Source: Candidatus Poribacteria bacterium (lineage in GTDB: Bacteria > Poribacteria > WGA-4E > WGA-3G). From it: a stretch of DNA of 64,000 nucleotides. This document shows positions 7,231 to 54,791 of the stretch, one piece after another. Location of the stretch: NCBI GenBank assembly GCA_965247285.1, contig CBDFHD010000002.1, forward strand, positions 364,499 to 428,498. The letters are read 5' to 3'. The notes under the pieces are model-generated. The model was given only the letters and a program-made list of their open reading frames with translations, was not told where the DNA came from and ran no database searches. Made by a program: the position numbers and the translations under genes. Every line of letters starts with the position of its first letter. Position 1 is the first letter of the stretch.

Positions 7231-8847
7231 TTACTCGATGTTTATGACGCTAAGAATATTCTTAAGCAGCTGGGCTTTGGTCATCCTTCCCGTGTAACTT
7301 CTAACAAATTTTCCATCTTGGAACACAATATAAGTAGGATGTGTCCTAACCTGATATTTTCCGGTTGTTTGTCGACTATCCGCATCACTAACATTCATTT
7401 TCGCGACAGCAAACGTGTTCCGGTTCTCTAAAGCAATTTCGGCGACAACTGGCGCCATTTGTTGACAGAACGGTCAGCCGTCCTTTATAAACTCAAGCAC
7501 GATAGGGATTTCTGATCCAAGCACAAGCGTATTAAACGTCGCATCGGTGACTTCAAATGGGATGCCGGAGGTTTTACTGGCGGTGGTAAACCTAATGTCG
7601 ATGTCGGTTGAATTGCCAGCCGCGTCCTTGACTTTTCCCGCAATGACGTAGGTTATCTCGTTGTCAAGTTCTTTCCCTTTGACTAACTCAAGCGTCCCTT
7701 TCTTGCCTGCAATTTTGCCGAGCCAACCCGCATCAGCACCTGCTGTGGTTTGCAGTGCGATGTTGCCAGTTACCTCTTCGCTGAATTCAACTTCGATCCG
7801 CCCACTGCTGTTAAGTGCTTCGGGGTCAACGTCCTTATCACCGTCGTTGACGCTTCCGCTGGTAATTTTGGGTGCCTCGGTATCTGGAACACGGACGGTA
7901 TAGGTGAGCGTTTGGACGCCATCCGCCCAAACGATGGTCAATGCGAGTGCCCCTGGGTCGAAGGGACCCGTGATCTCCACAGTTTTGCGAATAGTTGTGG
8001 CATCACCCGTACTCACAGTAACGTCCTCTGGTGGGTTGTCAAAGGTAAGTGTGATGGTATCATCCACAGTAAGTTCCGAGTTGCCTGCTGGGTTCGCACT
8101 AACGAATGCGGCAGGGGGTCTGATGGTATAGTTGAGGGTCTGTGTGCCATCCACCCAGGTGACAGTCAATGTGAGTGCCCCTGGGTCGAAGGGACCCATG
8201 ATTTCCACAGTTTTGTCAGTGACTGTAGCGATGCCTGCGCTCACAGTAACGTCCTCTGGTGGATTATCAAAAGTAAGAGTGATGGCATCGTCGACAGCAA
8301 GTTCCGAGTTGATTGCTGGGTTCGCACTAACGAACGCTGCGGGGGTTCTGATGGTATAATCGAGCGTTTGGGTGCCGTCTGTCCAAGCAATCGTCAACGT
8401 AAGGGGACCCGAATTAAAGGGACCTGTAATTTCCACGGTTTTGTCAGTGACTGTAGCGACACCTGTGCTTACTGTAACGTCCTCTGGTGGGTTGTCAAAT
8501 GTAAGGGTGATAGTATCGTTCACAATCAGCGGCGAGCCGATGGCTGGGTTCGCGCGAACGAACGCTACAGGTGGGCGGACAGTTTTACCCAAGTGACTCG
8601 CGACAAGCGTCAAATCGAGGATATTGACGGTGCCGTCCCCGTTGACATCCGGGTTAGGGGTCTGATCTGCAGTGGATGTCGTGCCAAAATGCGCGGCGAC
8701 CAACGTCAGATCAAGGATGTTTATCACTCCGTCGGCGTTGACATCGGATGCTCTTAAAGCGTCGAGTTCCGCATCTTGTGTATAGCCTACGGTTAAATTA
8801 GTGAAAATTAAACAGGTCGTTAGGAATAAAAAAATGATTTTTCTCAT
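7231..8847 (-). CDS. Secreted dockerin + 3x76-aa repeat + Ig-like + thioredoxin protein, predicted selenoprotein (U-P-F-C), 538 aa
   Basis: ORFs 7474-8847 and 7231-7458 join in frame: VLEFIKDG-TGA-PFCQQMAPVV. The TGA (7474-7476) is at the first Cys of the Trx CxxC. A GGCGCC-AGTT-GTCGCC hairpin starts 17 nt downstream. Confidence 0.85.
7891..8574 (-). repeat. Three intragenic 228-bp (76-aa) repeats
   Basis: PxAFVxANPA...TITLTFDNPPEDVTVS...TVEIxGPF...xDGxQTLxYTxR occurs three times. Confidence 0.95.
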
Positions 8848-8971
8848 CTGTTTTTCTCCGTGGATAGTTTATGCTTGCGTGCTGTACCAATCTTGCACTA
8901 CTTCGGGAATCGTTTGCAGATTTTCGATTGTGGTTTTACCACCGAAGTTACAAGCAGGAAATGATATAACT

Positions 8972-9580
8972 TTATTCGGTTTCATCAATCCCTAAGATTC
9001 CAAGGATACGTTGCACCAATTCAGCCTTAGGCATTGCCCCACTGAAGCCTTGGGCAATTTCTCCGTCTTTGAATACGATATAGGTCGGTGTTCCACGAAT
9101 ATGATATTCGGCTGTTTTCTCCGGTTGGGTGGTTACATCTACCTTGACGAAACTAAAAATCTCGCGATATTCCAATGCTACTTCTGCGACCACCGGTCTC
9201 ATTAGTATGCAATATATTCAGGCATCGTTTTTAAATTCTACGACAATAGGCAGTTCAGAACCCAAGACGACATCGTCAAAAGTTGCATCCGTGACTTCAA
9301 ACGGGATGCCGGATCTCCTACCAAAATGGCTCGCGACGAGCGTTAAATCGAGGATATTGACGATGCCATCGCCATTGGCATCCGGGTTAAGGCTCTGATC
9401 TGCGGTGGGGGGCTCGCCGAAATGCGCGGCGACCAGCGTCAGATCAAGGATATTTATTACGCCGTCAGCATTGATGTCGGACGCGCTTAAGGGGTCAAAA
9501 TCCGTGTCCTGTGTGTAGCCTACGGTTAAAGGACTCAAGATTAAACAGATCGTTAGCAGTAAAACCGTAATTTTTTTCAT
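8972..9580 (-). CDS. Secreted dockerin-thioredoxin paralog, predicted selenoprotein (U-I-Y-C), 202 aa
   Basis: ORFs 9218-9580 and 8972-9202 join in frame: VVEFKNDA-TGA-IYCILMRPVV, with the TGA at 9218-9220. A GACC-GGT-GGTC hairpin lies at the matching position. Confidence 0.85.
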
Positions 9581-9600
9581 CTGTTTTTTCCCTTAAGGGT

Positions 9601-10629
9601 TTATATTTGTGCTTGGTGCCATTCTTGAACTGCTTCCGGAATTGCTTGCAGATTTGCGATTGTCGTCTGAAGTGGGATAGCGCACTCCGGTCCAATCAGT
9701 GGCACCCCTGCGTCAAGATTCTTTACAACCTCTGCTTTAACGTCTTCCGGTCCTTTGGAAAACAGTGTTTCAGGATTGTTAATGTTTCCAACGAGCGCAA
9801 TGCGCTCTTTCACAATGTCCATAGATTCCTGCGGCTCGTTTTTGGAGTCGTAATGGAAGGCGGACATGCCGGTTTGCGCGATGTATTCCATTCTGTCAAC
9901 GGTGCGCCCACAGATGTGCAGGATTAAGGGGATCGGGATACGTTCAACAAATTCGATGTGGAGGTCCCGTAGGTAGCGTTGGTAGTATTCGCCACTGACG
10001 AGATCGCCTGTGGCGTGGTCGGGGAGCGTAAGCGCATCGGCACCTGCCTCGATTTGTGCGACACCAAATTGCACAGTGGCTTCCTTCATCCGATCGAGTG
10101 CGAGTTTCGTTTTACCCGGGTCATCGAGCGAGAGCAACAGGAAAGGTTCAACGCCGAAGCAGTGGTAACCGAGCGACCAGGGTCCCATGGTTTTCCCGAT
10201 GACAGCGACTTCATCACCGTATTCTTTTTTCAGGATTTTAATCGCTTCGAGTACGCATTGGGTATCTGGATGTGTCAAGAAGTCGTCAGGTATAACGACA
10301 TCGTCAACGTCTTCCCAGATCGGTTCTCGCATTCTAACCGTGGGCCAGTTGTCCTTCTGTTCCCACTGAATTTTACAACCGAGTGCGCTCGATTCTTGGA
10401 TAATTGTGAAAACGGGCATGATGGTATCGAACCCGAGTTCGGTATATCCTGTCGCGGCGAGTCGTGCCATGAGTTCTGGCTCTCGGTTTGCTTGTGGGAA
10501 AGGGGCATCGACGAGATCCATCAGTTCAACGGTCGCGACGGAAGTCGGATTGCAGATAGGTGTGCGATCGGTGGGTTCATTATTGAGCGCAGCGAGCACC
10601 CGTTCACGCCCTGTCATTGGTGTTTGCAT
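9601..10629 (-). CDS. MtaA/CmuA-type methyltransferase (uroporphyrinogen decarboxylase superfamily)
   Basis: MTGRERV.AAL, EAGAD, LHICG, GNI.NP and GPECAIP motifs. Confidence 0.85.
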   Translation of the reverse strand: MQTPMTGRERVLAALNNEPTDRTPICNPTSVATVELMDLVDAPFPQANREPELMARLAATGYTELGFDTIMPVFTIIQESSALGCKIQWEQKDNWPTVRMREPIWEDVDDVVIPDDFLTHPDTQCVLEAIKILKKEYGDEVAVIGKTMGPWSLGYHCFGVEPFLLLSLDDPGKTKLALDRMKEATVQFGVAQIEAGADALTLPDHATGDLVSGEYYQRYLRDLHIEFVERIPIPLILHICGRTVDRMEYIAQTGMSAFHYDSKNEPQESMDIVKERIALVGNINNPETLFSKGPEDVKAEVVKNLDAGVPLIGPECAIPLQTTIANLQAIPEAVQEWHQAQI

Positions 10630-10641
10630 CTTCAGTTTCCT

Positions 10642-11298
10642 TTAGGTTTGTTGACTTGGGGCGGCAAGTACGCCGCGTGCGGCACCCATCTCCTCTTCTC
10701 GTAGGATGACTCTGACGTTCGGGGCGCGGATCAGTAGAAGTCCGATAAGTGCGTCGTGGGAATGCCCACAGGCAAAACTGACAGTATCATTGTTATCGGT
10801 TTCAATGTTGTCCATTTCGCCCAATTTCATTAAGCCGCCAGCTATCGCTGAGATTCGCCGTGCTGCGCCTCTGCCTTCATCATTTGCGTTAACCCGATAG
10901 ATACCGTTTCCAGTTGAATCGACCGTGATGGTGAGTCGTGATTTCCTATCCAGTATGTTTAAAGGGCGTGGTTCGGTATGGGTGTTTGATGCGAGTTTGC
11001 ATGCCTCTAAGAAGACGCGACGACATGCGGCTTCATGGATATTCTTACAAGGGAAATAGAGCAGACCTTCGGGGGTTTTTAGCATGCCACCGAGTGTTTG
11101 CATTGTTTGTGCAATTGCCTCAATTCTCTCGGTAGCCCCCGTCATTTGGCTATAGGTATGAACAAGGAAAGCAGGGAAATCCGTTCCAGTCGTTGCATCG
11201 GCAATTTGCTGGTGATAGAGTCCAATAGTAATATCGTGGAAGTGTGGATCAATGGGTATGAGTTCAATACGTCTGCCGATGTCAACAATGCGTCGCAT
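10642..11298 (-). CDS. Conserved hypothetical protein
   Basis: Long ORF. The ATG at 11298 (MRRIVDIGRR) avoids overlap with the upstream gene. Confidence 0.65.
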   Translation of the reverse strand: MRRIVDIGRRIELIPIDPHFHDITIGLYHQQIADATTGTDFPAFLVHTYSQMTGATERIEAIAQTMQTLGGMLKTPEGLLYFPCKNIHEAACRRVFLEACKLASNTHTEPRPLNILDRKSRLTITVDSTGNGIYRVNANDEGRGAARRISAIAGGLMKLGEMDNIETDNNDTVSFACGHSHDALIGLLLIRAPNVRVILREEEMGAARGVLAAPSQQT

Positions 11299-11317
11299 AG
11301 GGATTCCCTCACAGCAA

Positions 11318-12253
11318 TTAGCGACGGGCGAGTCGACCGCCGTAGTGATTTTCATAGATATACTTGTAGGCGCGTTCGGAGAGCCGCCGCAGGATATAGG
11401 TGCGCCGATTTCTCCATTTGGTAAAGGACTGCCACCGATTCTTTCGGTTTGTCTTGGTCCTGTCCTCCATCAACCCGATAAAAACATAAGGTCTCGATTT
11501 GCCTTGCGGGTCTCGGAATACTAATATGCCGCCGTCTCCTACCAATCCGTAAACAGTCCCAGTTTTATTGTAAACCGCCACCGATGAAGGGATGTAGGTT
11601 TTTTTAAAGATATAGTCTCCATTTTTGAGTTTGAAGTACCACTTCATTTTTTCAGAATGGGGGAGTTGCTCGTGCCACAACCGCATAAAGAACGTGCCGA
11701 GATCACTCGCAGAAGTCATATTCCTGTAAGTCCGTCCTCCCTGTGGTATGTATTCAACAATGTGGGTCTGCTTAAAATAGGGGTAATTAACTTTCAGTAT
11801 CCGATTTACCCGTGCCGGTCCCCCAAGTAATCGAATAAAATAGTTGGTTGATGGATTTGAACTCCGTTGGATCATTGCTGTCAGGTGTCCCCGATTTATA
11901 GCAGTGTGTGCTTGCCGTCTGTGTTTAACTTCATGAAAATAGGCGAGCATAACGAAGTTCTTAATAAGTGAGGCTGCCATCATCTGCCGATCTTCGTTGA
12001 TCGATACTATTTTTTTATTTTTTGAAATGTCGTAGACGACAAAGCTTGTTCGATCGGTTGTTGACAGAATCCGGCGACTCCGCCGGTTTTTGATATAGAG
12101 CTCGAAGGTTGCCTCCAGAGGCGAATCAATTGTTCCCCGGAGTTTACTTGGGATGCTCCAATATTTTGCCGCTGGCGCGCTACATATCGGAAATAATAGC
12201 GCGATACTACAACAGATCACAAGAAGGTTTAACTTTCGTATATATCTAAACAT
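11318..12253 (-). CDS. Serine hydrolase, class A beta-lactamase-like
   Basis: SxxK (ASLIK), SxN (SSN) and KTG motifs in order; N-terminal signal peptide. Confidence 0.8.
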   Translation of the reverse strand: MFRYIRKLNLLVICCSIALLFPICSAPAAKYWSIPSKLRGTIDSPLEATFELYIKNRRSRRILSTTDRTSFVVYDISKNKKIVSINEDRQMMAASLIKNFVMLAYFHEVKHRRQAHTAINRGHLTAMIQRSSNPSTNYFIRLLGGPARVNRILKVNYPYFKQTHIVEYIPQGGRTYRNMTSASDLGTFFMRLWHEQLPHSEKMKWYFKLKNGDYIFKKTYIPSSVAVYNKTGTVYGLVGDGGILVFRDPQGKSRPYVFIGLMEDRTKTNRKNRWQSFTKWRNRRTYILRRLSERAYKYIYENHYGGRLARR

Positions 12254-12341
12254 TTGCCGTCTATTTCCTTTCTTATACTTGTCTTTCTAACAGATAAAGG
12301 GAATGTTATTTATAAGTGCAAGTATACATCTGAGTTGTGAA

Positions 12342-13883
12342 TCACTCAATGTTGGAATTAATATCCGGATTAATAGTTGGTAACTGATAACACGCCGCCT
12401 CGCGGTCGCTTCGAACGAGAAGATAATCACCGGCAAGTGCGGGTGTGTTCCAAGCTCTACCCTTTACGGCTGCGAAACGTGCGTGTTCTATATGGGTGTT
12501 CGGGTTTGGATCTACGAGTACAACTTCGCCGGATTCGGTCAGGACGAGGAGAACATCGGAAATCAGGAGAGTCTGTCCATGTCCATATCTACCTCGTTTC
12601 CATTGACGTGTGCCGTCGGCTGGGTTTATACAGGCAAAAATCCCATCGTCCAGTCCATATAGATAGTCGTTGTAGTAAATGATGTTAGTGAATTTGGCTT
12701 TTAGATATATGGTTTCCCATATAATAGAGACGTTGAATTCACCCATCGGGTTACGAGAAATTTGGAACAGTTTAGCACCGACACCGTAACCGCTTGAGAC
12801 GAGAAGTTTGTCATCAGGTAGCGGGACCGGTTGCGATACACATTCCACTGAGGGGGGCCACGGTTGCTTCCATAAGAGTTCACCGCTCAACGGTTCATGC
12901 GCCGTGACGAGTCCTTGGTTAAAAATTACGATTTGCTCTACACCCGCCAGGGTTGTGAGGAGTGGTGAGCTGTAACCGCTCTTGTTCCTGTATCCTACCC
13001 AAACGATTTCGCCGGTCTCTCTGTGGTATGCAACTGCGCCGCCAGCACTGACGACAACGAGTTCACCGAAAACGAGCGGCGAAATGCTTACGCCCCAAGG
13101 TGGTGCTTCTGCCTCGTGCTCTTCAAAGATGTTGGTTGTCCAGAGTTGTTCTCCCGTCTCAAAATCGAGGCAGTTGAGAATCCCTGTTGAACCGACGGTA
13201 TAAACCCTGCTCCCTGAAATCGTTGGTGTTGCTCGCGGCCCGAGCCCAGCGGGAGGGGCGTGGTATCTCGCGTTATCTTCGCGGCTCCACTGGACATCGC
13301 CGGTGTGTAACTCATAACAGACGACTTTTTCCCAGTCGTCTTCCTGTTCTTGCGTGATTGCTGAGTTACCGGCAATTGCGAATCCTGACCAACCCGCGCC
13401 GACAGGTCGCCGCCACACTAACTTCGGTGGAGAGGATTCCCAATCAAGTTTCAATTGCGTCGTAGATATGACACCGTTTCGATTCTGTCCGAGGAATTGT
13501 GGGTAGTCCGTTGCGGACATTTGCGGATCCGACGTGTTTTCAGAACTTGGTCGGAAGGTAGTTTGACTCTCTTGCCAACGCCATTCAAATATCGGCACGA
13601 GGTCGCCGCTGAATCCTTTGAATTGGAATAGGTTGGTGCTGAGAAAAACACCCAAGACGATCACCGCAAGAGCAAGTAACTTAACCCGCCGTCTCATCTC
13701 AGAGAGGAATAACAACCATAATATACCCAAGATGATTGTGCCGATGACAATCATGGTGGTTAAGAGAATCTTGTCTTGGCGATGGCCCGCGTCCGAAATC
13801 CATGTCACCAGCGTGCCTAAAATGGCTAAGATGATGACAACCCAAAGGGGCCACCAGCGGATCGATTTTGGGGTGTGTTCCAC
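12342..13883 (-). CDS. Membrane-anchored PQQ-like beta-propeller protein
   Basis: N-terminal TM helices, YPQFLG.NR and repeated W-containing propeller motifs. Confidence 0.85.
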   Translation of the reverse strand: MEHTPKSIRWWPLWVVIILAILGTLVTWISDAGHRQDKILLTTMIVIGTIILGILWLLFLSEMRRRVKLLALAVIVLGVFLSTNLFQFKGFSGDLVPIFEWRWQESQTTFRPSSENTSDPQMSATDYPQFLGQNRNGVISTTQLKLDWESSPPKLVWRRPVGAGWSGFAIAGNSAITQEQEDDWEKVVCYELHTGDVQWSREDNARYHAPPAGLGPRATPTISGSRVYTVGSTGILNCLDFETGEQLWTTNIFEEHEAEAPPWGVSISPLVFGELVVVSAGGAVAYHRETGEIVWVGYRNKSGYSSPLLTTLAGVEQIVIFNQGLVTAHEPLSGELLWKQPWPPSVECVSQPVPLPDDKLLVSSGYGVGAKLFQISRNPMGEFNVSIIWETIYLKAKFTNIIYYNDYLYGLDDGIFACINPADGTRQWKRGRYGHGQTLLISDVLLVLTESGEVVLVDPNPNTHIEHARFAAVKGRAWNTPALAGDYLLVRSDREAACYQLPTINPDINSNIE

Positions 13884-14904: not shown

Positions 14905-14927
14905 ATTGTGATTAGGAGAAAACTTTC

Positions 14928-16149: not shown

Positions 16150-16207
16150 CTTGCGTATCTCCCATGACAACGTATTAGTGAAGTATACGATGACTGAGTC
16201 GTTGTGG

Positions 16208-26061: not shown

Positions 26062-26216
26062 TACCTTTGCTCTGGAAGAGCAACATGTTTATAGCAGCGC
26101 GTTGACTTGGTGCTTCCGCTCCAGAGGAGCGGTATGTTGACCATACATAGCACTCCGCTGGAGTGCCAGAACTTTGGCATTGGGTTTTCTATAAACATAG
26201 CACCCCGCTGGAGTGC
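26062..26216. repeat. Cluster of four REP hairpins of the RAYT-adjacent family
   Basis: CCGCTCCAGAGGAGCGG, GCACTCCGCTGGAGTGC and TTTCTATAAACATAGCACCCCGCTGGAGTGC, in both orientations. Confidence 0.8.
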
Positions 26217-26463: not shown

Positions 26464-27450
26464 ATGGAATATGTCAATTTTGGAAAAGCAGGGGTTAAAG
26501 TGAGTCCACTCGCGTTGGGTTTAGGACTCAGAGGACAAAGCAACGCGAATGATGCCCAAAGACTCATTGAACACGCCATCGATTCCGGTATCAATCTCAT
26601 TGATTGTGCCAACATCTATGGACTTATGGACGATCGCGCCAACACCGGTCGTTCTGAGGAGGTTCTCGGTAGAGCGATTCAGGGCAAACGCGATGACGTG
26701 GTGATTACGTCGAAGGTTTTCAGCCAGATCGGTCCGGGTCCCAACGATAGCGGTTTGTCACGATTCCATATTATGCGGGAAGTGGAGCGTTCTTTATCGC
26801 GTCTCAATACCGATCATATTGATGTTTATCTCATCCACGCGCCTGATGAAACGACTCCGCAGGAGGAGACGATCCGGGCAATGGACGATCTGGTGCGTTC
26901 GGGCAAGGTACGCTATATCGGCTGTTGTAATCATCAAGCATGGCAGGCGTGCAAGGCACTCTGGATCGCCGATCGGATTAACGCAACGCCCTATATGTGT
27001 ATTCAGAACATGTATAACCTGCTGAATCGGGATCTGGAGACTGATATGTTCGGTTTGGTACGTGAGGAAGGGTTGGGGGTTATGTGTTATAGCCCGTTGG
27101 CGGTGGGTTTGTTGAGCGGTGTTTATTCGCCAGATGAACCGCCTCCTGCTGGTACTTTGTGGGGGACACGATTACGTGAGGAATTTTCGCAGCGGATGAG
27201 TGGTGCAACCGGACAGGTGGTCACAACCCTCAAGCGACTCGCAGCGGAGTTAGGCAAAACGCCTGCGCAGCTCGCTGTGGCGTGGGTGTTATCGCATCCA
27301 GAGGTTACCGTTGCGATTAGTGGTAGCGACACGATTGAGCAACTTGATGATACACTCGGTGGTGTCGGTTGGGAACTCGATCCAGCGGTTCGGGATGAGT
27401 TGGACGAGGTTTCTCGTTCGTTCGTCCGTCTCATTGCACCAGCAGCTTAA
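26464..27450 (+). CDS. Aldo/keto reductase
   Basis: DCANIYG, GRSEEVLG, SL.RL.TD.ID.Y and YSPLA.G motifs. Start at MEYVNFG. Confidence 0.92.
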   Translation: MEYVNFGKAGVKVSPLALGLGLRGQSNANDAQRLIEHAIDSGINLIDCANIYGLMDDRANTGRSEEVLGRAIQGKRDDVVITSKVFSQIGPGPNDSGLSRFHIMREVERSLSRLNTDHIDVYLIHAPDETTPQEETIRAMDDLVRSGKVRYIGCCNHQAWQACKALWIADRINATPYMCIQNMYNLLNRDLETDMFGLVREEGLGVMCYSPLAVGLLSGVYSPDEPPPAGTLWGTRLREEFSQRMSGATGQVVTTLKRLAAELGKTPAQLAVAWVLSHPEVTVAISGSDTIEQLDDTLGGVGWELDPAVRDELDEVSRSFVRLIAPAA

Positions 27451-27586
27451 TAGCTATCAGCCATCAGCGATCAGCAGTCGGTAAGCGTCGCGACCGTGAG
27501 GTTGCTCCTACAGAAGGAGATCGGTGGTCGGCTTAAAAAACAAAAGAGGCGGATCTTCTCTGGATCCGCCTCTATGTTTTGTGCCG

Positions 27587-30308: not shown

Positions 30309-30597
30309 CAGTCTTTTCTGCTGAAGACTGAAGACTGAAGACTGAAAACTGATGGCTAACGGCTATCTGTTTGAAGTTATACCCAACTCTTTTTCCGAAA
30401 TCGGGATGTTAAAGACGGCACGATGTACTTGCATGATGGCTTTTCTAAATGTTGGCAGGGGCTTTTGTTTCGGGTTCAAATCCCTCCACTCCCAACGAGA
30501 TGATCTTTTTACGGGACTTCACGGAATGAAAGCCCAATGCTTTAGCTTTGGGATGAAATTCCGCCCTCTTGGAAAGGACCAAACGCCTAAAATAGAT

Positions 30598-30626
30598 TTG
30601 ACTTTCAGTCCAAATTGTGGTATAAT
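30598..30626 (+). promoter_or_regulatory. Element-internal sigma70 promoter for tnpB
   Basis: TTGACT-17-TATAAT with TGn. Confidence 0.7.
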
Positions 30627-30729
30627 TAGAGTATCACGTTGGAGACCGACATTTGTAGCGTTACCGCTTGGTAACGTGTCGGTTTCCTACCCACTACAAA
30701 GGGGTTAAAGGCGTGATACGTGAAAACCC

Positions 30730-31842
30730 ATGAAAACCTATAAATACCCGTTGGGTAAACAACTGAACACAATACGCATTGGTAATTTGCTTGACGATAT
30801 GTGGCAAGTGCATGAGTATTTCCATAAATGGCATCGTCAACGGTATAAAGACGGGCTGCCGTATGCGAACTACGCGGCAATGTGCACGCACCTCACTGAA
30901 CTTAAGAAAACCACACACCCACATTGGAACGCCTTGCCGAGCCAAGCGATCCAACAAGAGTTGAGACGGATTGACGCAGCGTATGACAGATTTTTCAAGA
31001 AACTCGGTGGTAGACCGAAAATCAAAAAGAGACACAAGTTTAAGTCTATCACCTATCCAGGAGAAGCGGGTTGGTCTCTGAAAAACAATCGTATCACCCT
31101 CACATTTCGCAAGTGGGATAAGGGTAAGTGGCGATTTGATAAAGTGCCTTACACTTTCCATAAACACCGCCAGTGGCACGGAACTATTAGTCGTATCACC
31201 ATCAAGCGAGATGCCTGTGGAAACTATTGGCTTTACATCATCACAACCTACACGGATTTTAAACCGCTGCCGACAACAGGTCAAAGCGTTGGGGCAGACT
31301 TCGGTATGAAAGACGCATATTTGACGCTTAGCACGAGTGAGAAGATACAACACCCACAACCTTTGAAACAGTCCTTGACGAAACTCCGCAAACTCAACAA
31401 AGCATTGAGCCGTAAGCAAAAAGGTTCGGGCGGTTGGTGGCGTGCTGTTCGTGAACTCGCACGGCTTTATCGAAAAATCATCAACCAACGCAAAGACTTT
31501 CATTGGCAACTCGCCACCGATCTTTGTAAGGCTTTCGACACAATCGCCATTGAAACTTTGAACCTGAAGGGCATGAAGAAACTTTGGGGATGTAAGGTCT
31601 CCGATCTCGCCTTCTACCAGTTCGTTGAGATATTGAAGTATAAGTGTATCAAACATAAGCGTCTTTTGAAGCAAGTCGGTCGATGGACTGCTACAACGAA
31701 ACCGTGTAGCGATTGTGGTTTTCACAACGAAACCCTAACACTTTCTGACAGACAGTGGATATGCCCTGAATGTGGTTCACACCACGATAGGGACATAAAC
31801 GCTGCGATAAACATATTGCGGGCAGGGATAGCCGTTATTTAA
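30730..31842 (+). CDS. tnpB: RNA-guided endonuclease TnpB
   Basis: RuvC VGADFG / IAIETLN / DRDINAAINI plus CSDC...CPEC zinc finger. Confidence 0.95.
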   Translation: MKTYKYPLGKQLNTIRIGNLLDDMWQVHEYFHKWHRQRYKDGLPYANYAAMCTHLTELKKTTHPHWNALPSQAIQQELRRIDAAYDRFFKKLGGRPKIKKRHKFKSITYPGEAGWSLKNNRITLTFRKWDKGKWRFDKVPYTFHKHRQWHGTISRITIKRDACGNYWLYIITTYTDFKPLPTTGQSVGADFGMKDAYLTLSTSEKIQHPQPLKQSLTKLRKLNKALSRKQKGSGGWWRAVRELARLYRKIINQRKDFHWQLATDLCKAFDTIAIETLNLKGMKKLWGCKVSDLAFYQFVEILKYKCIKHKRLLKQVGRWTATTKPCSDCGFHNETLTLSDRQWICPECGSHHDRDINAAINILRAGIAVI

Positions 31843-40530: not shown

Positions 40531-41343
40531 CTATTGGGAAGCCTGCTTAACCTTACCCCATGTGGTCGTGAGGTGCCCCAATGGAGAAACTGGGAGAAAT
40601 TCCTCCATATTATTCATGACCGTCTCGATATCGTCTTTATCCAGCTCGCCTTTGAAAATGGCGACCTCGTCAATGACGCCGTTGAAAAATGAACCGCCTC
40701 TGTGATCACCCATGCTGACTCCGATTGCAAAGCCGTTCTCGTGATCAATGCTACCTTTGACCACGCCATGGTCAATAGGGCCTCCCTGCTGTTCTCCATC
40801 GACGTAGATATATCGCTCACCCTTTGTTCTGCTAAAAACCACCGCAAGATGATGCCACTTCCCGTCGTCAAGACCCGCGCCTCTGTTGTCACAAACTGTG
40901 ACAGGTTCAGTCTGCAGTCAGGTCCTGATTTGTCCTCCGCCACTGAACTTGACTTCAAACCCAGTCCAGTCTCCAGCCAGCCTTGTTTTACTCATTACGA
41001 AACCCGTGCCCGCATCCGTTTTAAACCAAGCGGTGGCCGTAAAGTCGGTCTTATCGCCGAGTTCAAACTCTTTCAGTTTGTCAGCACTTTCCGTCTCGAC
41101 CGAGGTCCCGCTGCCATCAAATTCCAGAGCACCGCCGAACTTACCTTCAACCCATTTGGGTCCGGCTATGAGCTCGCCGTCATTGCCATTGGGTGAGGAA
41201 TCTTTAGCTACATTTCCTTTACCTTCGTCAAAGAGCCATACCCCGATTGCGTCATCTACGCTAACTTCAGCTGCGCTTAGTAAAGGGAAGGCAGAAGTTA
41301 GACATGCGCAAGCTATGACCTGTATCACCAATACCCGTATCAT
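40531..41343 (-). CDS. Secreted LamG protein with in-frame TGA (Sec recoding or nonsense allele), 270 aa if read through
   Basis: GGQIRT-TGA(40918-40920)-LQTEPVTVCD...KWHHLAVVF is continuous in frame; ends TTTWGKVK. Confidence 0.7.
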
Positions 41344-41938: not shown

Positions 41939-43231
41939 CTAAAGACTTGGGCTTGCGATAGCACTAAACAGCATTAGCTGTGTTGCGTTTTGCAAGTCCA
42001 AATCTCGTGCTTCGTTCGTGTTTCCCGCTTCAGTGAGGGTGGTAACCCACCGCTCTCCACGAAGGGCCGCAGCAGCCCTGAAAAGTATGTTTATCGCAGC
42101 GTTGTGGTCTCGGTCTAAAGACGTGTCACAAGACTGACAATCGAAGGTGCGTATCGCCAGAGAGAGCTTCTTTGGCGACTTCTGACCGCAGCAAGAGCAA
42201 GTTTGTGAGGTGTTCTTGGGATTCACTTGGTGGAAGTGGAAACCGTCTCTTTCGGCTATGTTTCCACACCACTCAAAGAACTTACCCCAAGACGCATCAG
42301 AGATACTCTTGCTGAGGTGTTTATTCTGAACCATATTGGAAATGCCCAAATCTTCAGCGATAAGGACGTTATTCTTCTGATGATGATAAAGTTTGTAAAC
42401 GAGTTTACCCATAAAATCTTTTCGCTTGTTTGTTGTGCGCTCATGGTGCAGGGCAGTCGTGTGAACGGCTTTTTGCCAGCGGTTGCTCCCTTTCTTTCGG
42501 CGCGATTGTGTTTTAGAGTGTTTATGGAGCAAGCCTTCTGCTTTACGATACCAACGTGGGTTATCCTCTTTTTCGCCTTCAGAAGTCGTCAGATAGTGCG
42601 TTGTCCCCATATCCACGGCAATCGCAGCAGTCGGTTCAACTTTCGCGGTGTTAGGCATCTCAGAAGTGATATGAGCATACCAACCCGACGCTTTTTTCAC
42701 AAGAGACACTTCTTTCGGGTCTCCTTCTAAAGGACGATGCATGTATATCTTAACTTCGCCTAACTTCGGCACTTTTAAGCGATTGTGCCGGTAGTTGGTT
42801 TCTATGATTGGGTTCTCGCGAACGCGTATTGTCTGTTTGTCAGTGTCTTTCGTCTTTTTACGAACCACTTTGGTATATTTTCGTAGACTCCATGTCAGAG
42901 AACGCACGCGCTTTTTGTAGCGAGGGTATCCTTTTTTCGCAGCGTTTTCTTTACAACGTTTACGGAAGGCAGCAAACGCTTTATCGTTTCTCCGTAGGGC
43001 ATGGTTCTGAAAATCTTGGGGAACCTCGCGGAAATCGTCATATTTCTCACGCGCTGCCGTGAGAAGTGTCTGCTGGTCAGTGAGCGAAACAAAAATGCCT
43101 TCTGTTTCATACGCCACAGTCCGATCATGGCGGGCAGAGTTCTGTAACTCACATAGGTGGTCTAACCACGCTAATAATGTCGTTTCCTGTGCTTGTGTCG
43201 GATACACAGGATAGGTAAAAGTCAATTTCAT
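41939..43231 (-). CDS. tnpB: RNA-guided endonuclease TnpB
   Basis: TFTYPVYPT HTH start, RuvC AVDMGT / IAEDL / DRDHNAAINI and CSCC...CQSC finger. Confidence 0.95.
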   Translation of the reverse strand: MKLTFTYPVYPTQAQETTLLAWLDHLCELQNSARHDRTVAYETEGIFVSLTDQQTLLTAAREKYDDFREVPQDFQNHALRRNDKAFAAFRKRCKENAAKKGYPRYKKRVRSLTWSLRKYTKVVRKKTKDTDKQTIRVRENPIIETNYRHNRLKVPKLGEVKIYMHRPLEGDPKEVSLVKKASGWYAHITSEMPNTAKVEPTAAIAVDMGTTHYLTTSEGEKEDNPRWYRKAEGLLHKHSKTQSRRKKGSNRWQKAVHTTALHHERTTNKRKDFMGKLVYKLYHHQKNNVLIAEDLGISNMVQNKHLSKSISDASWGKFFEWCGNIAERDGFHFHQVNPKNTSQTCSCCGQKSPKKLSLAIRTFDCQSCDTSLDRDHNAAINILFRAAAALRGERWVTTLTEAGNTNEARDLDLQNATQLMLFSAIASPSL

Positions 43232-43327
43232 GGTATATCGTGTATCGTGCGTTTATCCCCTAACGAGTGGGAGGCAAGCACGCCACCAAGCGGTGACGCT
43301 CGTTATGCTTGCCAACACGATACTCTA

Positions 43328-43356
43328 ATTATACTACATTTTGGACGGAATGTCAA
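43328..43356 (-). promoter_or_regulatory. Consensus sigma70 promoter inside element 2
   Basis: Minus strand TTGACA-17-TATAAT. Confidence 0.75.
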
Positions 43357-43853
43357 ATATATTTTGGTGTTTTGGTCCTTTCCAAGAGGGCGGTTTTTCC
43401 TCCCAAAGCTAAAGCATTGGGATTCCAAACCGAGAATTCCCTTGAACAAACCAGAGCGATCAGATGTGCTTCTTTTTCGCCATCAAACTTTTCGGGTCTT
43501 GAGGCTTTACGTTCTTTCGGATTCAGTAGCAGTGTGTGGCGGTAGACTCGAAAGTCTTTCTCAGTTGTGTGTTTCCGCAATTAGTGAGATCATAGCATGT
43601 TCTGAGAAAAAAGTGAAGAATTGATCGGCATTTAGTCAGAGCACACTTTAAAAAACGTTTGACTTTGGTCAGAAATTCTGGTAGAATAGGCGTATCTGTT
43701 GCAACCTGACACCTATCAGTGTTTTCGTCCACGCCTCACAATGGACAAAGTAGATGCAGAAAACCATAGACAATGCGAAAAAACGTTACTCGGTGGACTC
43801 TGCAACAGAAATTGTCTCTTTGAAAATCCGACACGTTAACGTTTAGGAGGCTT

Positions 43854-48259: not shown

Positions 48260-49203
48260 TACCCTTTTTCCTTATCTACAACATTCGTGAGCGGTTCTCC
48301 CTTCACGTATTTGCGCATGTTGTCGATAAACAGTTCCATCGCGCGTTTGGCGATATTCTGCGAGGCACCAGCGGTATGGGACGTTAGGATCACGTTCGGA
48401 AGTGTCCATAATGGATTGTCTTCTGGACACGGTTCCGTATAAGTCACGTCCAGTCCAGCACCCGCCAATTTCCCACTTTTCAGCGCGGCGATAAGTGCGT
48501 CCTCGTCGACCACCTTACCGCGACTGACGTTGACGAAGAAGCAGCCATCTGGTAAGGCATCGAATTCTGCATGGGATAGCAGTTTATGGGTTTGCGGTGT
48601 GATTGGACAGCATACCGTCAAAACGTCGCAGCGAGACAGGAACTCCGGTAGCCAGTCGAGTTGCCCCAATTCATCGACGGTGTCTGGCTTCTCCATCGGT
48701 TCGGGATCGACAGCAATTACGTTGAATTCGAAGGCTTTGGCACGTTGCGCGACCGCTCTGCCGATACCCCCAAGTCCGAGAATGCCCATCGTCATTCCGG
48801 ATACCTCAACGCATAGTGTCCACTTCCACTCCTTATCACGCATCAAATCGAGTTGTGCGTTAATCCCACGTGTCAGGGACAGTAGCAACGCGAAGGCGTG
48901 TTCGGCGAGTTGGGGTCCATACAGACGCTTGCTGTTTATCAGTGTGATGGGGCTTTCCTTGAAGGCGGGGTACATTGACCTTTCTACCCCCACGAAAGGT
49001 TGCATCACCCACTGTAGGGATTTCGCATGAGGGAGTGCATCTTCCGACACCACTCCGTAAAGAATTTCAACATCTGAAAGGTGGTCTTTAAGTTGCTCAC
49101 CTTCCGGTAGAAAGCTGATTTCCATTTCCGAGGGTGCGCCCCCCAGCATATCCGCGACCTCTTGGCTAATTCCACTGGCAATCAAGACTTTGATTTTCGC
49201 CAT
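48256..49203 (-). CDS. D-2-hydroxyacid dehydrogenase
   Basis: GILGLGGIG, NVSRG.VVDE, LDV..EP and HTAG motifs. Confidence 0.92.
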   Translation of the reverse strand: MAKIKVLIASGISQEVADMLGGAPSEMEISFLPEGEQLKDHLSDVEILYGVVSEDALPHAKSLQWVMQPFVGVERSMYPAFKESPITLINSKRLYGPQLAEHAFALLLSLTRGINAQLDLMRDKEWKWTLCVEVSGMTMGILGLGGIGRAVAQRAKAFEFNVIAVDPEPMEKPDTVDELGQLDWLPEFLSRCDVLTVCCPITPQTHKLLSHAEFDALPDGCFFVNVSRGKVVDEDALIAALKSGKLAGAGLDVTYTEPCPEDNPLWTLPNVILTSHTAGASQNIAKRAMELFIDNMRKYVKGEPLTNVVDKEKGY

Positions 49204-49614
49204 TGATAATCTCCTTCGTTATAGAATGTTCTGTGATGATGGTTCACATAAACCGAAGTTTATCACAAATCAGGGAGACTGTCAACAGGAACATTTACAT
49301 AATTTTTCTTGAAAAATAATGCAGGAATTGTTAATATTGTTAGTATCAACAATACCTTCGCCAACTTATCCAGGCCTGAGTTGAGCAGGTGTTTGATGAA
49401 TAGAGCCAATAGAATTCAGATGTTCAGTGAGTTGGTCAATAACAATAGGTTCAGGTTTTTGTGGAAGCCTTTTTAATGTTTCTTGTAAATACTTCAGTCC
49501 ACGGTAGTGCGTTTTGAGATCTAAGACGCTAAAGTCAGTGTTTTGTATTGGTAAAGCGAGGAGAAAAACAAGCGCAATGAAGTGCGCTATTACAAACCTA
49601 AGGAGGATATACGC

Positions 49615-50214
49615 ATGAAATATATGCGGTTGTTATTGATTCAATTTGTACTGCTTGTATTGGGATTGGTCGGTTATTGCATTGCTACTGAGATTGGCTT
49701 TGAAGCCGAAGATGCAGATGAAATTGTAGAAATCATGGAAATTTATGAAGATAAGAAAGCTTCAGGCGGTATGTATATATCGGCGGGAAAGGGCGGGGGT
49801 GGTCGCCACCCCGGTAAAGCCGATTTCGTGATTAACGTTAGAACACCCGGTCAGTACACGATGTGGGGGCGGGTGATTGCCCAAGATACGGCGAAGGACT
49901 CTTTCCATATCACAGTCGATCAGAAGAAAAGTCCACAACCGGGTGATGCCAACATGATCTGGGATACAGGTCAGCATCAGGAGTGGACGTGGGCAAAAGT
50001 AAAATGGCGCGAAAAGAATCCGTTGACCTTTGATCTGAAACCGGGGAAACATACCGTTACATTTTGGTCTAGGGAAGGCGATACCCGTTTGGATGCCGTT
50101 TACATGGCAATAGACCCCAACGCTGTCCCCAAACTACCGAATGAAATTGAGGGTTTTGCTGTGCATCCCCGGAATCGCTTAACGACAACTTGGGCGGAGC
50201 TAAAAAAACGGTAG
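49615..50214 (+). CDS. Secreted CBM-like (galactose-binding fold) protein with TTWAELK tail
   Basis: AGGAGG RBS, signal peptide, FEAED, G.YT.W.R, DSF and L.PG.HT motifs. Confidence 0.7.
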   Translation: MKYMRLLLIQFVLLVLGLVGYCIATEIGFEAEDADEIVEIMEIYEDKKASGGMYISAGKGGGGRHPGKADFVINVRTPGQYTMWGRVIAQDTAKDSFHITVDQKKSPQPGDANMIWDTGQHQEWTWAKVKWREKNPLTFDLKPGKHTVTFWSREGDTRLDAVYMAIDPNAVPKLPNEIEGFAVHPRNRLTTTWAELKKR

Positions 50215-50289
50215 GGCTGGACTCAAGCACTGTGACATCAGAGCTGTTAGTCCTAACGGGTGGAGACCAGATGACTTGACACAACTTAA

Positions 50290-51471
50290 CACAAGTCAAC
50301 GCAATTTGGCGGTTCCAGCAGGAGTGGCACTGGACTCGGCTCTTTTGGTTCAGGCTCCGGTTTTGAACAAGGACGGACACAAGGCAGTGGCAAGCTAAAT
50401 GCACTCGTGGAGGGTGCGGGTGCTGCGAATATCAATGCTTCGTTATCAGATGTAACAGGGAACATGGTTCTGGGTAACGGTGTACCACAGCTTTCCAAGG
50501 GAAGCCCTGGTGCTATTATTCAGGGGCGCGGCAAAGAGATTATTGGAAGCCTCAATCTCGTCCGTCTTGATGACCCGTTACATCCGAACCTTGATTTCTG
50601 AGGCAGCGGCATCGGACACCTCCGATTCGGGGCAGGTCTGCCCTATTTAGTCAAGTCGCTGAATACAGAAACAGGCATCCAAACCCAAATGGTTGACGCG
50701 GTCCAAATTACGGATGCAGCGTTCTTTGAGTCACCGATTATCTTTATGGAACCGATTTCCGGTTCCTCAGGAAAACTCCAGAACGGATTACTGAACGGTC
50801 AGGCTATCTGGCAAACGAAAGGGGATCGTCCTTCCTTCGGTTATACTGATCGGGAGGCGCAGCGGATTCGCGAATATGTCATAAACCGTGGCGGGTTTAT
50901 CTATATGCCCACGCACGGAAACACGGAATTGGCAATGCAACCCGCGCTTCGCATCCTGCGTCAAATTCTCCCTGAATACCACTTGACCACTATTCCTAAG
51001 GATCACGAGATTTACAATGCTTTCTATGAGTTGAACGGACCGCTCCGATTTCCTGTTCGGAAAATGGGGAGTACCATTCTCCATCACGGTCCCTACGGTC
51101 AGTTACAGGGCGTTTTCATTGACGACCGACTCGCTGTTCTCGTTGATACGGAAGCAATGATACACGTGATGGATGGGGCAGTGCAGAAACCTTTCTTCGG
51201 TCACTATCAGGACCGGAATAAGATTTTAGAGGAGTTCGCACCCGCTGCCGCACGGCAACTCATTAACGTTGTCATCTACGCGGTAACACATGGGAGTATC
51301 TCGGATTATAGCAACTATATCCCCGAAGACGCGCTCGCCGGTGGAGAGACAGACAACATTCCGAAAAAGGCACCGGCTGCCGCAAATCTCTTTAAAATCC
51401 GTGCAATCCCTGTACTCCGAGATTCACACAGGAAAATCTTTGAGGTAACGCATCTCAATCCTAATCTTTGA
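50290..51471 (+). CDS. DUF4159-like protein, apparently 5'-truncated, with in-frame TGA at 50599-50601
   Basis: The frame opens after TAA at 50287 with a Gly/Ser linker. PNLDF-TGA-GSGIGHLRFGAGLPYL continues into GGFIY, IP.DHEIY and G.FIDDRLAV. Confidence 0.6.
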
Positions 51472-51520
51472 CAAAATATTTACACACCCACATAAACATA
51501 AACCTTTTCCTCCACAACAA

Positions 51521-51950
51521 CGGTAGGTGCGGTTTGATGAAGTTTCAGAAAATATTTCGGTAATGCTATGCTTCCCTCAGACCCGGTAGGGTTTTTGCTT
51601 GGGGGTTTCTTCACGGTTTGTAACCGCACCATAAGTGTCAATTTAAGAAAAAACTGTGACATCGCATCGTAGGTTGGGTAGAGCGGGATAGAAAAATAAT
51701 AGACAACCCACCAGAACCCCTATGGTTTCAAGAGACTTTGGAAACACCCTAAACGCAGCGAAACCCAACTTGACGGCTAACCGATCTGTGATGTGTTGGG
51801 TTTTACTATTTTCTTGGGTGTATACGAGGCTATGTTGGGTTTCAGGTGTATTTGGCACACCGACATCTGTTTTCTCAGTTCCGTTCAACCCAACATCATA
51901 CCATCAGGTGCTTGAAGTGATAGGCGTATATCGTTGGGTTTCACTACGTA
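51521..51950. repeat. Cluster of REP elements (GTAGGTGCGG and GTAGGTTGGG families)
   Basis: GGTAGGTGCGGTTT...AACCGCACC and CGTAGGTTGGG...GAAACCCAAC...GTTCAACCCAAC. Confidence 0.7.
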
Positions 51951-52030
51951 TCTCTGTTTTTTAGGGTATGAAGGATTAGATGCCGGTTTGACGGCACACG
52001 GCATGTGCCTACTACTGTAACTGTTTATGC

Positions 52031-52059
52031 TTGACAGATTCTGCCAGAACGGGTATTCT
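52031..52059 (+). promoter_or_regulatory. Sigma70-like promoter
   Basis: TTGACA-17-TATTCT. Confidence 0.6.
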
Positions 52060-52106
52060 CAAGAAAAACCGACGTCTCTCTACCCCGTGAAAGCGAGTAA
52101 CATACC

Positions 52107-54791
52107 ATGCTACAGGTCAGATACGCACGCTATACCCCACACGATGCCTACCTCCGTTTGACGAATGAACATTACATCCTCGATGTGGACAGACGCAGCG
52201 GTGTTATCAAAGGTCTGTACCTGACAGAGGACGCACAAGGCACGAACTTCGTCGGAAATGAGCAGAACATGCGCCTCAACATCTGGTGGAAGCAACAGCA
52301 CGTTCCTGAAAAGGCGCAACGCATTCCGATGCACACTTGGACTGGCGATCTTGTGCTGAAAGCGCGTCTCGCCGGTGAAGCGGCGTGGTGCGCGATGCAC
52401 ACCTTCCTCAGCGACGATGTCCGTACGGTGACGTACGACGATGATTTCATAACGACCCGTTATGAGGGCAATTCTGTCAACCGAGGTGGACTCCAGCATC
52501 TCAATATCGAACAACGTTACGAGTTTAGGGGAAACCCACAGAGCGGCGATGCCATTCTATGGACGATCACGCTTCACAACACTTCGCAGGAACATGTCGA
52601 AATCGGAGAACTCGGACTCCCGATCACACTGAATACGAACTACAGTATCGGTGATGAGAAACAGGGTTTCAACCATCGGTCGATTGAGTCTACGAAGTAT
52701 GTCTTTGAGCAACGCGTGATTGAGAGCTCGTTTGTCTCTGGACATTCGTCCTATATCCTCGCGACCCGTGCGAGCGGTAAAGGCGACCACTTACTGATTG
52801 TCCCACAAGGCGACACCGCACTGGAGGCGATTTCTGGGTATGGACTTTTCCCTAACACCGAGATGGTGACGGGTGCTGGCTCCATGTTTTACCTGTTTTC
52901 CGAAGCCACTGCGGAGGAACCTTGGTACAATGGACACCGTTCGCTCACTTTGGCACCCGATGAAAGACGGACTTTCAGCTTCACACTGTGTCGCGTCAAG
53001 GACTATGCCGATGTCAACGAGAAGTTGTATCAGAACGGGAACATTGCCGTGAAGATCGTGCCGGGGATGGTGTTACCTGTTAGCACGACGGCACATCTTC
53101 TGCTCCGATGCAAGAAGCCGATTACGGCTATTGAGACCGCTAACGGCATTGAGGTTGAACCCGTAGCAGTGATGGGCGACCGTTACACCTATACCGTCCG
53201 TCTCACTTCCATGGGGGAACAGAAGGTGACAATCCGCTACGGCAATGGCGAGTGGACACACCTGTTGTTCAACGGTATCGCGGAGATAGAGACCTTGATG
53301 AAGGCGCGCGCCAAATTCGTCGTGGAGAATCAGCGTGTCGAAGATCCTGACGACCTCTGTCACTACAGTTTTCGCATCTGGAATAACGAGGATGAAAGAC
53401 GCATTGTGGAGGAGGAGGCGCCTTGCGGCTCGATTGATATGGGGGGCAGCGATGACTGATGCTTTGCAGCACCCGTATTCCTCGCCGGAAAAAACGCCTA
53501 TTATCCCGACGAGCAGGAGATCCACGCACTCGATGAATTCATTGAGAAATTTCTCTACGGGAAGTTGCAGAACAAAGACAACTATCAGGTGCTGAATTCG
53601 CTCATCGGACTCCGACCGGGGTCGTGGCGGCGATGGGATTACGTCTGGCGCATCTATAACTATCCGCACGTCTATAATATCTACTATCAGATGTATCGGA
53701 TCACCAAGTTGCACGGGATAAAAACGAGTCGCGAACCGTTGTGGTATCTCAACCTCGCCTATAACACCGCACTCGCCTCTTACCTCGATTCTACCTACGA
53801 GAGCGTCTATGAGACGAAGAATTACATCGACTACCACCGTGGCAACATGTCCAAAACGCATGCACCGATGGGTTCACCGATTCTGGCGCATCTCCTGAGA
53901 TCGCTGAAAACGGAAGGCATGGTTCCTGAATACTGGACGCTTCGAGAGGCTATTGAAGGGTGTCTCCCGTTTTTCCTTGAGGAGGAGTACCCGTTCGCAT
54001 CGGAGTATTGCTTCGATCACGCCTCGAAAGCGGCGTTATACTATTTAGCACAGGTCGCCGATGATGAATCGCTGAAGCAGCGCACTGTGCAGACGATCCT
54101 CGCCAGCCGCGACGCAACCCCGATGTGGTTCTCCTACTGCACGAACATGCGATTTATCGGATGCTACCCAACGCCACTATTGGCGCGTCCGCTTTTCGAT
54201 AGATATGAGCAGACAGGGGATCTACACTTCCTGCAGAAGGCTTATGGTGCAACCTTGGCTGTCTGGAGTTGTGTTGATCCTTCGGGGAAAGGCTACAACG
54301 GTAGAGAGTGGCGGTTCAACCCGCCGGAGAAGGGGTCACCGGAATACAACTACTATCGGAACGGCTGTTTCTCTGGTGAGGTCGGTATGGGACTTTACGG
54401 CAACTTGAGCATGCTGAAATCCTACCTCGTTCAAGATCCGGATTTCGGGCTCGTCGGATATGGATGTGCTGTTTCGGAGACGGCGGACGGCTATACGCTC
54501 GTCCCGCAGGATGGGTTAGGGGTTAGGGCATCCTTTGTGCCGCTCGGTGTGGCGTTGGAGACGGTGAAGGCTCGTATTGAGAAGGCGACACTCACGAAGG
54601 ATTTGCGACAGTTGGAGCTCGTTTTGTCGAAGCCGTCCAGGCATGCGGAATGTGCGCATATTTCTGTCCGTGGGATGCCATCAGGCTCATATCGGTGTAG
54701 CACAGGTCGCATCGAGATCCGCGAGCAAATTGAATGGGATGTTCCTTATGCAGAGGGGCAGGATTCCGTTGTCGTGACGTTAGTCCGCTAA
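52107..54791 (+). CDS. DUF5695-like large protein with in-frame TGA at 53457-53459, 894 aa if read through
   Basis: GGSDD-TGA-CFAAPVFLAGKNAYYPDEQEIHALDEFIEKFLYGKLQ joins both ORFs in frame; R.YNYPHVYN motif downstream. Confidence 0.65.

Follow-up and report, generated by a model that had tools for sequence, protein, structure and literature searches.

Decoding of UGA as selenocysteine (Sec) was investigated in a stretch of 64,000 nucleotides from a Candidatus Poribacteria genome (GenBank assembly GCA_965247285.1, contig CBDFHD010000002.1, positions 364,499 to 428,498), referred to below as the window, in which five pairs of open reading frames (ORFs) are separated by an in-frame TGA. Comparison with homologous genes makes it highly probable that four of these five codons specify Sec, in two tandem thioredoxins, a LamG protein and a DUF4159 protein, and that the fifth, in a DUF5695 gene, is a nonsense mutation. 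This reading is supported directly by the alternation of TGA and Cys codons, the conservation of TGA, the selection acting on the sequence that follows it, the conserved hairpins and the Arg found in homologues at position 53457. From these observations we infer the insertion of Sec itself, the role of each hairpin as a selenocysteine insertion sequence (SECIS), and a chemical function for Sec in the LamG and DUF4159 proteins. In the proposed mechanism, UGA would be decoded in this genome by the usual bacterial pathway, in which a SelB-type elongation factor binds a SECIS hairpin located within the coding sequence, just 3' of the UGA. All the named homologues come from Candidatus Poribacteria, which are sponge symbionts.

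A preliminary description of this DNA had reported the five interruptions, and all of them are present where it placed them. On the reverse strand, the TGA at 7474-7476 joins ORFs of 457 and 75 aa, the one at 9218-9220 ORFs of 120 and 76 aa, and the one at 40918-40920 ORFs of 141 and about 129 aa; on the forward strand, ORFs of 64 and 260 aa are joined at 50599-50601 and ORFs of 450 and 443 aa at 53457-53459. A single Pfam domain crosses the TGA at four of the five sites (Thioredoxin twice, Laminin_G_3 and DUF5695), and at the fifth, the DUF4159 TGA at 50599, full-length homologues of about 540 aa extend across the interruption.

TGA is also a normal stop codon in this DNA, as had been pointed out against a global change of the code: it ends 9 of the 47 gene models, including the four examples then given, next to 26 ending in TAA and 12 in TAG. 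A global reassignment of UGA of the kind seen in Mycoplasma or Gracilibacteria is not encountered here, TGA being used as a stop and the residues aligned with the in-frame TGAs being Cys or Arg. A six-frame scan for stops with at least 55 open codons on either side returned many cases of all three stop types; those inside real genes are the five TGAs only, and no homology-bridged gene in the window is broken by TAA or TAG. The statement that TGA alone separates joinable ORFs holds in this sense, but TAA lies between in-frame neighbours at 10642 and 38322. These were considered as interrupted genes and rejected: each downstream ORF has its own ATG and Shine-Dalgarno box (AGGA or GGAG), and the URO-D gene, which belongs to one of these pairs, matches the full Pfam profile and is complete. 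The N- and C-terminal extensions of all 47 genes, bounded by TGA, contained only junk-like stretches and no additional Sec candidate.

Tandem secreted thioredoxins

Translation and Pfam matches identify two neighbouring reverse-strand genes, at 7231..8847 and 8972..9580, as coding for secreted proteins that combine a dockerin with a thioredoxin. The product of the first, the long paralogue, consists of a signal peptide, a type I dockerin, three immunoglobulin-like (Ig-like) repeats of 76 aa encoded by three tandem 228-nt units, a Big_5 domain and a thioredoxin domain; its Pfam matches are Dockerin_1, Big_5 and Thioredoxin, the last covering residues 432-531 across the TGA. The short paralogue, of 202 aa, is a tandem paralogue of the long one, and its N-terminal 270 nt, which correspond to the signal peptide and dockerin parts, are 81% identical. 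The Pfam Thioredoxin profile runs across the TGA in both proteins (E = 2e-16 and 3e-19 for the two paralogues), and matches to the NCBIfam thioredoxin models fall below the cut-offs. In each case the UGA occupies the first position of a U-x-x-C motif, at 7474..7476 within G-U-P-F-C in the long paralogue and at 9218..9220 within A-U-I-Y-C in the short one. The Sec residue would therein act as the attacking residue of the active site.

The codon at this position was surveyed in Poribacteria with one genome per species, which returned 53 loci, 52 of them readable at the codon. TGA is found in 49 and TGC in the three others (L037, L054 and L055). A phylum-wide alternation of this kind, between TGA and Cys, is what classically marks a Sec codon. 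The loci L056 and L058, which are orthologues of the long paralogue, also carry TGA at the codon equivalent to 7474.

Both codons are followed by a candidate SECIS hairpin, whose loop lies 23 nt after the UGA. In the long paralogue this is GGCGCC-AGUU-GUCGCC, at 7441..7456 on the reverse strand, and L058 retains its pairing through a two-sided change from C-G to A-U. In the short paralogue it is a stem-loop at 9176..9211, on the same strand, with the apex GACC-GGU-GGUC. Among TGA-form thioredoxins, the hairpin exists in three versions (GCGACC-GGU-GGUCGC, CUGU-GGUC-ACAG and GGCGCC-AGUU-GUCGCC), the two thioredoxin subtypes using different registers, with a GGU, GGUC or AGUU loop 23-26 nt after the UGA. 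The hairpin with the GGU loop is missing from all three Cys-form orthologues. Pairing and covariation were counted in a 41-sequence alignment in two registers, with slid partner columns and shuffled alignments as controls; the hairpin pairs 83.6% of the alignment cells, and the slid controls reach 23-64%.

A BatA/VWA gene (5159-7075) lies on the other strand, directly upstream of the tandem thioredoxin genes.

The LamG and DUF4159 genes

The gene at 40531..41343, on the reverse strand, codes for a secreted protein of 270 aa with a LamG / concanavalin A-like lectin fold, in which Pfam Laminin_G_3 matches residues 94-239 across the TGA. The codon at 40918..40920 is a probable Sec codon, and its translation places Sec141 ten residues before Cys151 (U-x9-C). 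TGA is found at the same codon in L061 and L062, with 93% and 80% amino-acid identity respectively and both frames intact. It is also found in L006 (95%), where a 4-nt deletion upstream shifts the frame. In this Logan contig, near position 1810 (about 40975 in the window), GGCTGGCTGG is replaced by GGCTGG, 50 nt before the TGA, and the L006 gene is either a pseudogene or the product of an assembly slip. In the eight closest homologues (P0058-P0065, full-length or partial, 52-75% identity), the TGA column is occupied by Cys, with another Cys 10 residues further on, and the Cys form L007 carries TGC at the site; the wider LamG family shows various residues in this column. The sequence on the 3' side of the codon has a dN/dS of 0.30-0.33 among the TGA forms, which indicates that this downstream part is translated.

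The candidate SECIS of this gene is a hairpin of 7 bp with a GUU loop, UGUCACA-GUU-UGUGACA (40887..40903, reverse strand), with its loop 21 nt from the UGA. The four sequences with TGA share it without any change. In L007, a Cys form, GCT and GAT stand in place of GTC and GAC, which breaks two of the seven pairs and weakens the stem.

The AlphaFold model of one of the Cys homologues, P0059 (pLDDT, the predicted local distance difference test, of 84.6), matches lectin-like or concanavalin-like jelly rolls in a fold search and places residues 141 and 151 on the neighbouring strands E138-144 and E149-154. This modelled geometry would fit a cross-strand disulfide, and a selenylsulfide in the Sec form. 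The LamG Sec would accordingly replace the first Cys of a C-x9-C pair that is specific to the clade, and its most likely function is to form such a selenylsulfide cross-link, or else a novel site for redox chemistry or metal binding. The use of Sec in a non-redox scaffold is plausible for this protein. One of the two TnpB genes of the window is located immediately upstream of the LamG gene.

The DUF4159 gene of the window (50290..51471, forward strand) is seen from comparison with L001 to be the truncated relic of a gene for a membrane-anchored selenoprotein. The intact form, of about 525 aa, is composed of a transmembrane (TM) helix, a Pro/Ala-rich linker, the loop bearing the Sec residue and the DUF4159 domain. 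The ancestral Sec codon is the UGA at 50599..50601, in the motif HPNLDF-U-GSGIG. TGA occupies the same codon in seven other copies from six loci (L001, L003, L004, L141, L142 with two copies, and L143). Among these, the L003 and L004 genes are found on circular-flagged contigs of about 6 Mb, and the distant copies of L141, L142 (both) and L143 keep the TGA at 56-69% identity. A Cys form, L005, has TGC at the site.

Within the best 120 matches to this protein, 21 clusters at 90% identity are N-terminal fragments of about 259 aa whose last residues are exactly ...HPNLD[FI]; C-terminal fragments make up about 90 clusters, and 8 clusters span the site with Cys. Among representatives at 50% identity, 12 clusters stop there and 5 carry Cys. 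The Cys homologues are P0198, P0218-P0231, P0246, P0298 and P0312. The Sec form appears, from these sequences, to be the majority state of the protein across the phylum, with Cys in a minority of homologues. The gene is carried by most Poribacteria, and nearly all their public genomes show it as two ORFs, in more than 100 fragment clusters, an annotation error that could be corrected. The Sec or Cys residue belongs to a loop of about 10 residues ([U/C]-G-S-G-I-G) that is found only in this DUF4159 subfamily, just N-terminal to the domain. The Sec would sit in a subfamily-specific loop of a membrane-anchored protein, where a chemical role can be presumed for it.

After the DUF4159 TGA, dN/dS is 0.13-0.19, and it is 0.1 over the 30 codons that precede any downstream ATG. 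The comparison of dN/dS proposed in the preliminary description therefore shows constraint continuing downstream of the TGA in this gene as in the LamG gene. Selection is also visible on the RNA. In nine DUF4159 sequences, the third positions of codons +4, +5, +7, +8 and +10 to +15 after the TGA are invariant, when 19 of the 20 codons upstream of it vary at the third position, and the frozen synonymous sites from +4 to +15 are the footprint of an RNA structure laid over the coding sequence. The candidate SECIS in this region (50611..50644, forward strand) consists of two adjacent hairpins, AUCGGA-CACC-UCCGAU at 50611-50626 and GGGGCA-GGUC-UGCCCU at 50629-50644; the GGUC loop of the second starts 33 nt after the UGA. 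This second hairpin contains GCAGGUCUGC, the 10-nt apical stem-loop of the Escherichia coli fdhF SECIS, whose sequence was confirmed in 5,419 E. coli genomes.

Two deletions have inactivated the copy in the window, as revealed by comparison with L001, which is 97% identical. At the 5' end, 904 bp are missing (junction 50323-50333; L001 6512-7415), and with them the start codon, the TM anchor and about 168 codons. At the 3' end, a loss of 268 bp (junction about 51382-51388; L001 8482-8749) has removed the native stop and the terminator. Both deletions are flanked by short direct repeats, which are GCAAATC in the case of the 268-bp one. The same 5' deletion allele is present in contigs of two other runs, X18 and X19, and is for this reason not an assembly artefact. 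The DUF4159 TGA of the window is thus an inherited Sec codon in a dead gene, a truncation that the preliminary description had missed.

Several further observations concern this family. In L001, an extra in-frame TGA at 7176-7178 falls on codon 89, which is Arg in other genomes, and represents a second CGA to TGA nonsense mutation of the lineage; the gene seems to be decaying in both strains. In L142, the N-terminal part of the DUF4159 selenoprotein gene is fused in frame to a sigma-70 factor of the extracytoplasmic function (ECF) type with regions r2 and r4 (504-1895), and a second, tandem copy is devoid of this sigma fusion. This arrangement would be in keeping with an anti-sigma-like role of the TM-DUF4159 module, as a sensor in the envelope. 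A rhodanese-domain gene directly follows the intact DUF4159 gene in L003 (4967-5815) and L004 (4926-5774), where the window has DUF5695 instead. The AlphaFold model of a full-length Cys homologue has a pLDDT of 43, which is too low for use.

All four Sec proteins start with a signal peptide or a TM helix (7231-8847, 8972-9580 and 40531-41343 in the window; 3001-4575 in L003 for DUF4159). These sequences suggest that the selenoproteins found here may share an envelope or extracytoplasmic theme. A more ambitious view is that Sec has entered exported folds that are not oxidoreductases, as two unrecognised families, with a structural rather than catalytic selenylsulfide in LamG and a lone Sec in DUF4159, which might be a selenium-containing envelope sensor. 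It is offered here as a tentative possibility; if true, it would amount to a programme of envelope selenoproteins in Poribacteria.

The fifth TGA and the alternative explanations

The forward-strand gene at 52107..54791 (894 codons) belongs to the DUF5695 family, the Pfam match covering residues 77-884 across the TGA, and contains a premature stop at 53457..53459. More than 30 full-length homologues with 85-97% identity have no interruption. Arg is present at this column in the 50 closest of 57 homologues, the distant ones having Q, Y, L or P; Cys never occurs, and TGA is found at the codon in none of the 57. The closest relative, L001, has CGA and L002 has CGT, and the base at 53457 is C in contigs of four public runs, without exception. 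No hairpin meeting the bacterial SECIS criteria follows this codon. The frame is intact on either side, without other damage, and the low dN/dS of about 0.1 reflects the history shared before a recent mutation. Judged from these alignments, the TGA at 53457 is a recent and private change from CGA (Arg) to TGA, or else a base error, and not a Sec codon. The second possibility, in which the T comes from sequencing or assembly and the DUF5695 gene is intact in the organism, agrees with the C read in all four runs with near-identical sequence and with the otherwise undamaged state of the gene. The neighbouring DUF4159 deletion, just as suspicious at first sight, proved nonetheless to be a real allele in other samples, and a base error is considered rather unlikely.

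The preliminary description had opposed Sec use beyond the known families to a decay of TGG or CGA into TGA at the three sites outside the thioredoxins. Each idea accounts for part of the data. Decay applies to DUF5695, where L001 retains CGA and the change is private, but not to LamG and DUF4159; Sec applies to these two genes, which combine a conserved TGA, Cys homologues, selection downstream and a hairpin, but not to DUF5695, with its invariant Arg in close homologues. The residue aligned with the TGA, the criterion then put forward, is Cys rather than Trp or Arg for LamG and DUF4159, and Arg for DUF5695. A stricter version of decay would make all three codons nonsense mutations, those of LamG and DUF4159 being inherited changes from the Cys codons TGC or TGT. 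Such a change needs a single base, and lesions are indeed common in this lineage, as seen in the DUF5695 codon, the two DUF4159 deletions of the window, the extra CGA to TGA of L001 and the 4-nt frameshift of L006. It is nevertheless improbable, given that the DUF4159 TGA is shared by at least seven other copies down to 56% identity and by at least 12 diverged clusters and is followed by sequence with a dN/dS of 0.13-0.19, and that LamG retains its TGA at 80% amino-acid identity, with two intact halves and a downstream dN/dS of 0.3. In addition, half a beta-sandwich is unable to fold alone, and conserved hairpins stand at the distance expected for a SECIS.

At the other extreme, all five codons including that of DUF5695 would be read as Sec, in a broad recoding. 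The count of five TGAs to zero TAA or TAG and the intact DUF5695 frame with its dN/dS of about 0.1 are in line with it. This explanation is contradicted by the Arg, never Cys, aligned with the DUF5695 site, by the closest relative differing only by C versus T, by the C of four other population samples, by the lack of a SECIS-like hairpin at this site, and by a dN/dS that records the time before the mutation; it deserves hardly any credence. A reassigned or leaky TGA, at which a suppressor tRNA inserts Trp, Gly or Cys and no Sec machinery is involved, would also explain frequent in-frame TGAs in a window where this machinery is absent. It is very improbable as well, since TGA ends 9 of 47 ordinary genes without conserved read-through extensions, the aligned residue is specifically Cys at four sites, the hairpins lie at SECIS distance from the UGA, and Sec use has been reported in Poribacteria (PMC13582414).

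The evidence drawn from hairpins needs to be weighed with care. In the current bacterial model, the SECIS has an apical loop of 3-9 nt, G within the first two loop positions, and a distance of 16-37 nt from the UGA (PMC13188914). The sites at 7474, 9218, 40918 and 50599 fit this model, with loops AGUU, GGU, GUU and GGUC at 23, 23, 21 and 33 nt respectively, and their hairpins are conserved in orthologues. The four share only the generic feature of a G in the loop. When a simple hairpin score was applied to all 2,260 TGA triplets of the window, the two thioredoxin sites were matched by 22-33% of them, LamG by 2% and DUF4159 by 5.5%, so that the score discriminates only weakly. The hairpins noted earlier near each TGA are, taken singly, not above chance, and nothing SECIS-like is found at 53457.

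Several results speak against the assignment of four Sec codons. Folding energies of the single sequences are at chance level, with z-scores from 0.0 to -1.1 relative to shuffles, and the support given by the hairpins is for this reason comparative. Covariation in the thioredoxin hairpin does not exceed that of shuffled alignments, with two pairs changing on both sides; these sequences are too conserved for an excess to appear. The Cys form L005 shares the second DUF4159 hairpin, whose conservation could therefore be due in part to constraint on the amino acids or to recent descent. The LamG case relies on four closely related TGA-bearing sequences, including the frameshifted L006, and the homologue fragment P0067 has Ser at the site. 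Finally, the selA, selB, selD and tRNA-Sec genes are absent from the 64-kb window: a tRNA scan of the window found none, hence no tRNA-Sec, and an Rfam scan of the window at the gathering threshold gave no match. Placed beside the distribution of TGA and Cys among homologues, these points leave Sec at four sites as the favoured reading, together with a nonsense mutation at 53457. Several in-frame TGAs in one window are therefore not one phenomenon, as one of them corresponds to decay and another is a Sec codon in a dead gene.

Genomic surroundings and known counterparts

Besides ordinary housekeeping genes and genes for the envelope, the window encodes two TnpB proteins and a Type ISP restriction enzyme. 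The TnpB genes (OrfB_IS605 / Cas12f-like TNB) have opposite orientations, at 30730-31842 on the forward strand and 41939-43231 on the reverse strand. Each is preceded by a 142-nt segment, and the two segments, 82% identical, form inverted arms at 30501-30642 and 43312-43453. The Type ISP restriction-modification enzyme (55821-58931, reverse strand, 1036 aa) is intact, and the syntenic gene of L002 is disrupted into three ORFs. In contigs from four metagenome runs, the intergenic stretch at about 51520-51710 is covered 10-20 times as deeply as the sequence on either side and shows many loose ends; it is a high-copy repeat of the miniature inverted-repeat transposable element (MITE) or repetitive extragenic palindromic (REP) type. 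Short related copies occur at 27450-27512 and 55680-55742. A tandem duplication of 166 nt, 99% identical, is found at 192-523, with weaker inverted copies at 26069-26145.

The mechanism involved here is ordinary bacterial Sec recoding and is not new. Sec-containing hydrogenases have been reported from Poribacteria (PMC13582414), and SelA and SelB are enriched in sponge symbionts (PMC5649159). Thioredoxin (PF00085, U-x-x-C) is among the experimentally supported prokaryotic selenoproteins (PMC13188914), and the two thioredoxins of the window are members of this known family with a new domain architecture. They have in common with it the thioredoxin fold, the Sec in place of the N-terminal Cys of C-x-x-C, the existence of Cys orthologues and the hairpin after the UGA. 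Unlike the known members, they are secreted and fused to a type I dockerin, with Ig-like repeats in one paralogue, an architecture that was not found in the selenoprotein or Poribacteria dockerin literature searched.

LamG and DUF4159 are probably new selenoprotein families. The 2026 catalogue, which covers more than 100 families of prokaryotic selenoproteins, lists neither Laminin_G_3 (PF13385) nor DUF4159 (PF13709), the two proteins match no selenoprotein model of NCBIfam, and no link to selenoproteins was found in the literature searched on DUF4159, LamG and concanavalin-like proteins. Expanded selenoproteomes of marine or symbiotic bacteria have been described in the Global Ocean Sampling (GOS) data (PMC2398784) and in the Olavius delta-1 symbiont (PMC1976440). 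The present case resembles them by its symbiont or marine setting, by many families with Cys/Sec pairs and by genes mis-annotated as split ORFs, and differs from them by families (PF13385 and PF13709) lying outside the current selenoprotein catalogue.

A further counterpart is the SECIS of E. coli fdhF, the SelB-binding hairpin GGUUGCAGGUCUGCACC. The second DUF4159 hairpin has the identical GCAGGUCUGC, with the stem closing the GGUC loop, and a loop of this sequence also occurs in the type B thioredoxin hairpins. The two signals differ in the start of the loop, 33 nt after the UGA in DUF4159 versus about 18 in fdhF, and in the additional conserved hairpin that DUF4159 has between the UGA and the fdhF-like one, unlike fdhF. 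No equivalent of the bulged U of fdhF was established in the DUF4159 hairpin. The DUF5695 site and codon 89 of the L001 DUF4159 gene are, on the other hand, the same as ordinary nonsense pseudogenes, with a single C-to-T change at an Arg codon. In the LamG protein, Sec in a lectin-like beta-sandwich, at the position of an apparent structural disulfide, would be an unusual use of this residue.

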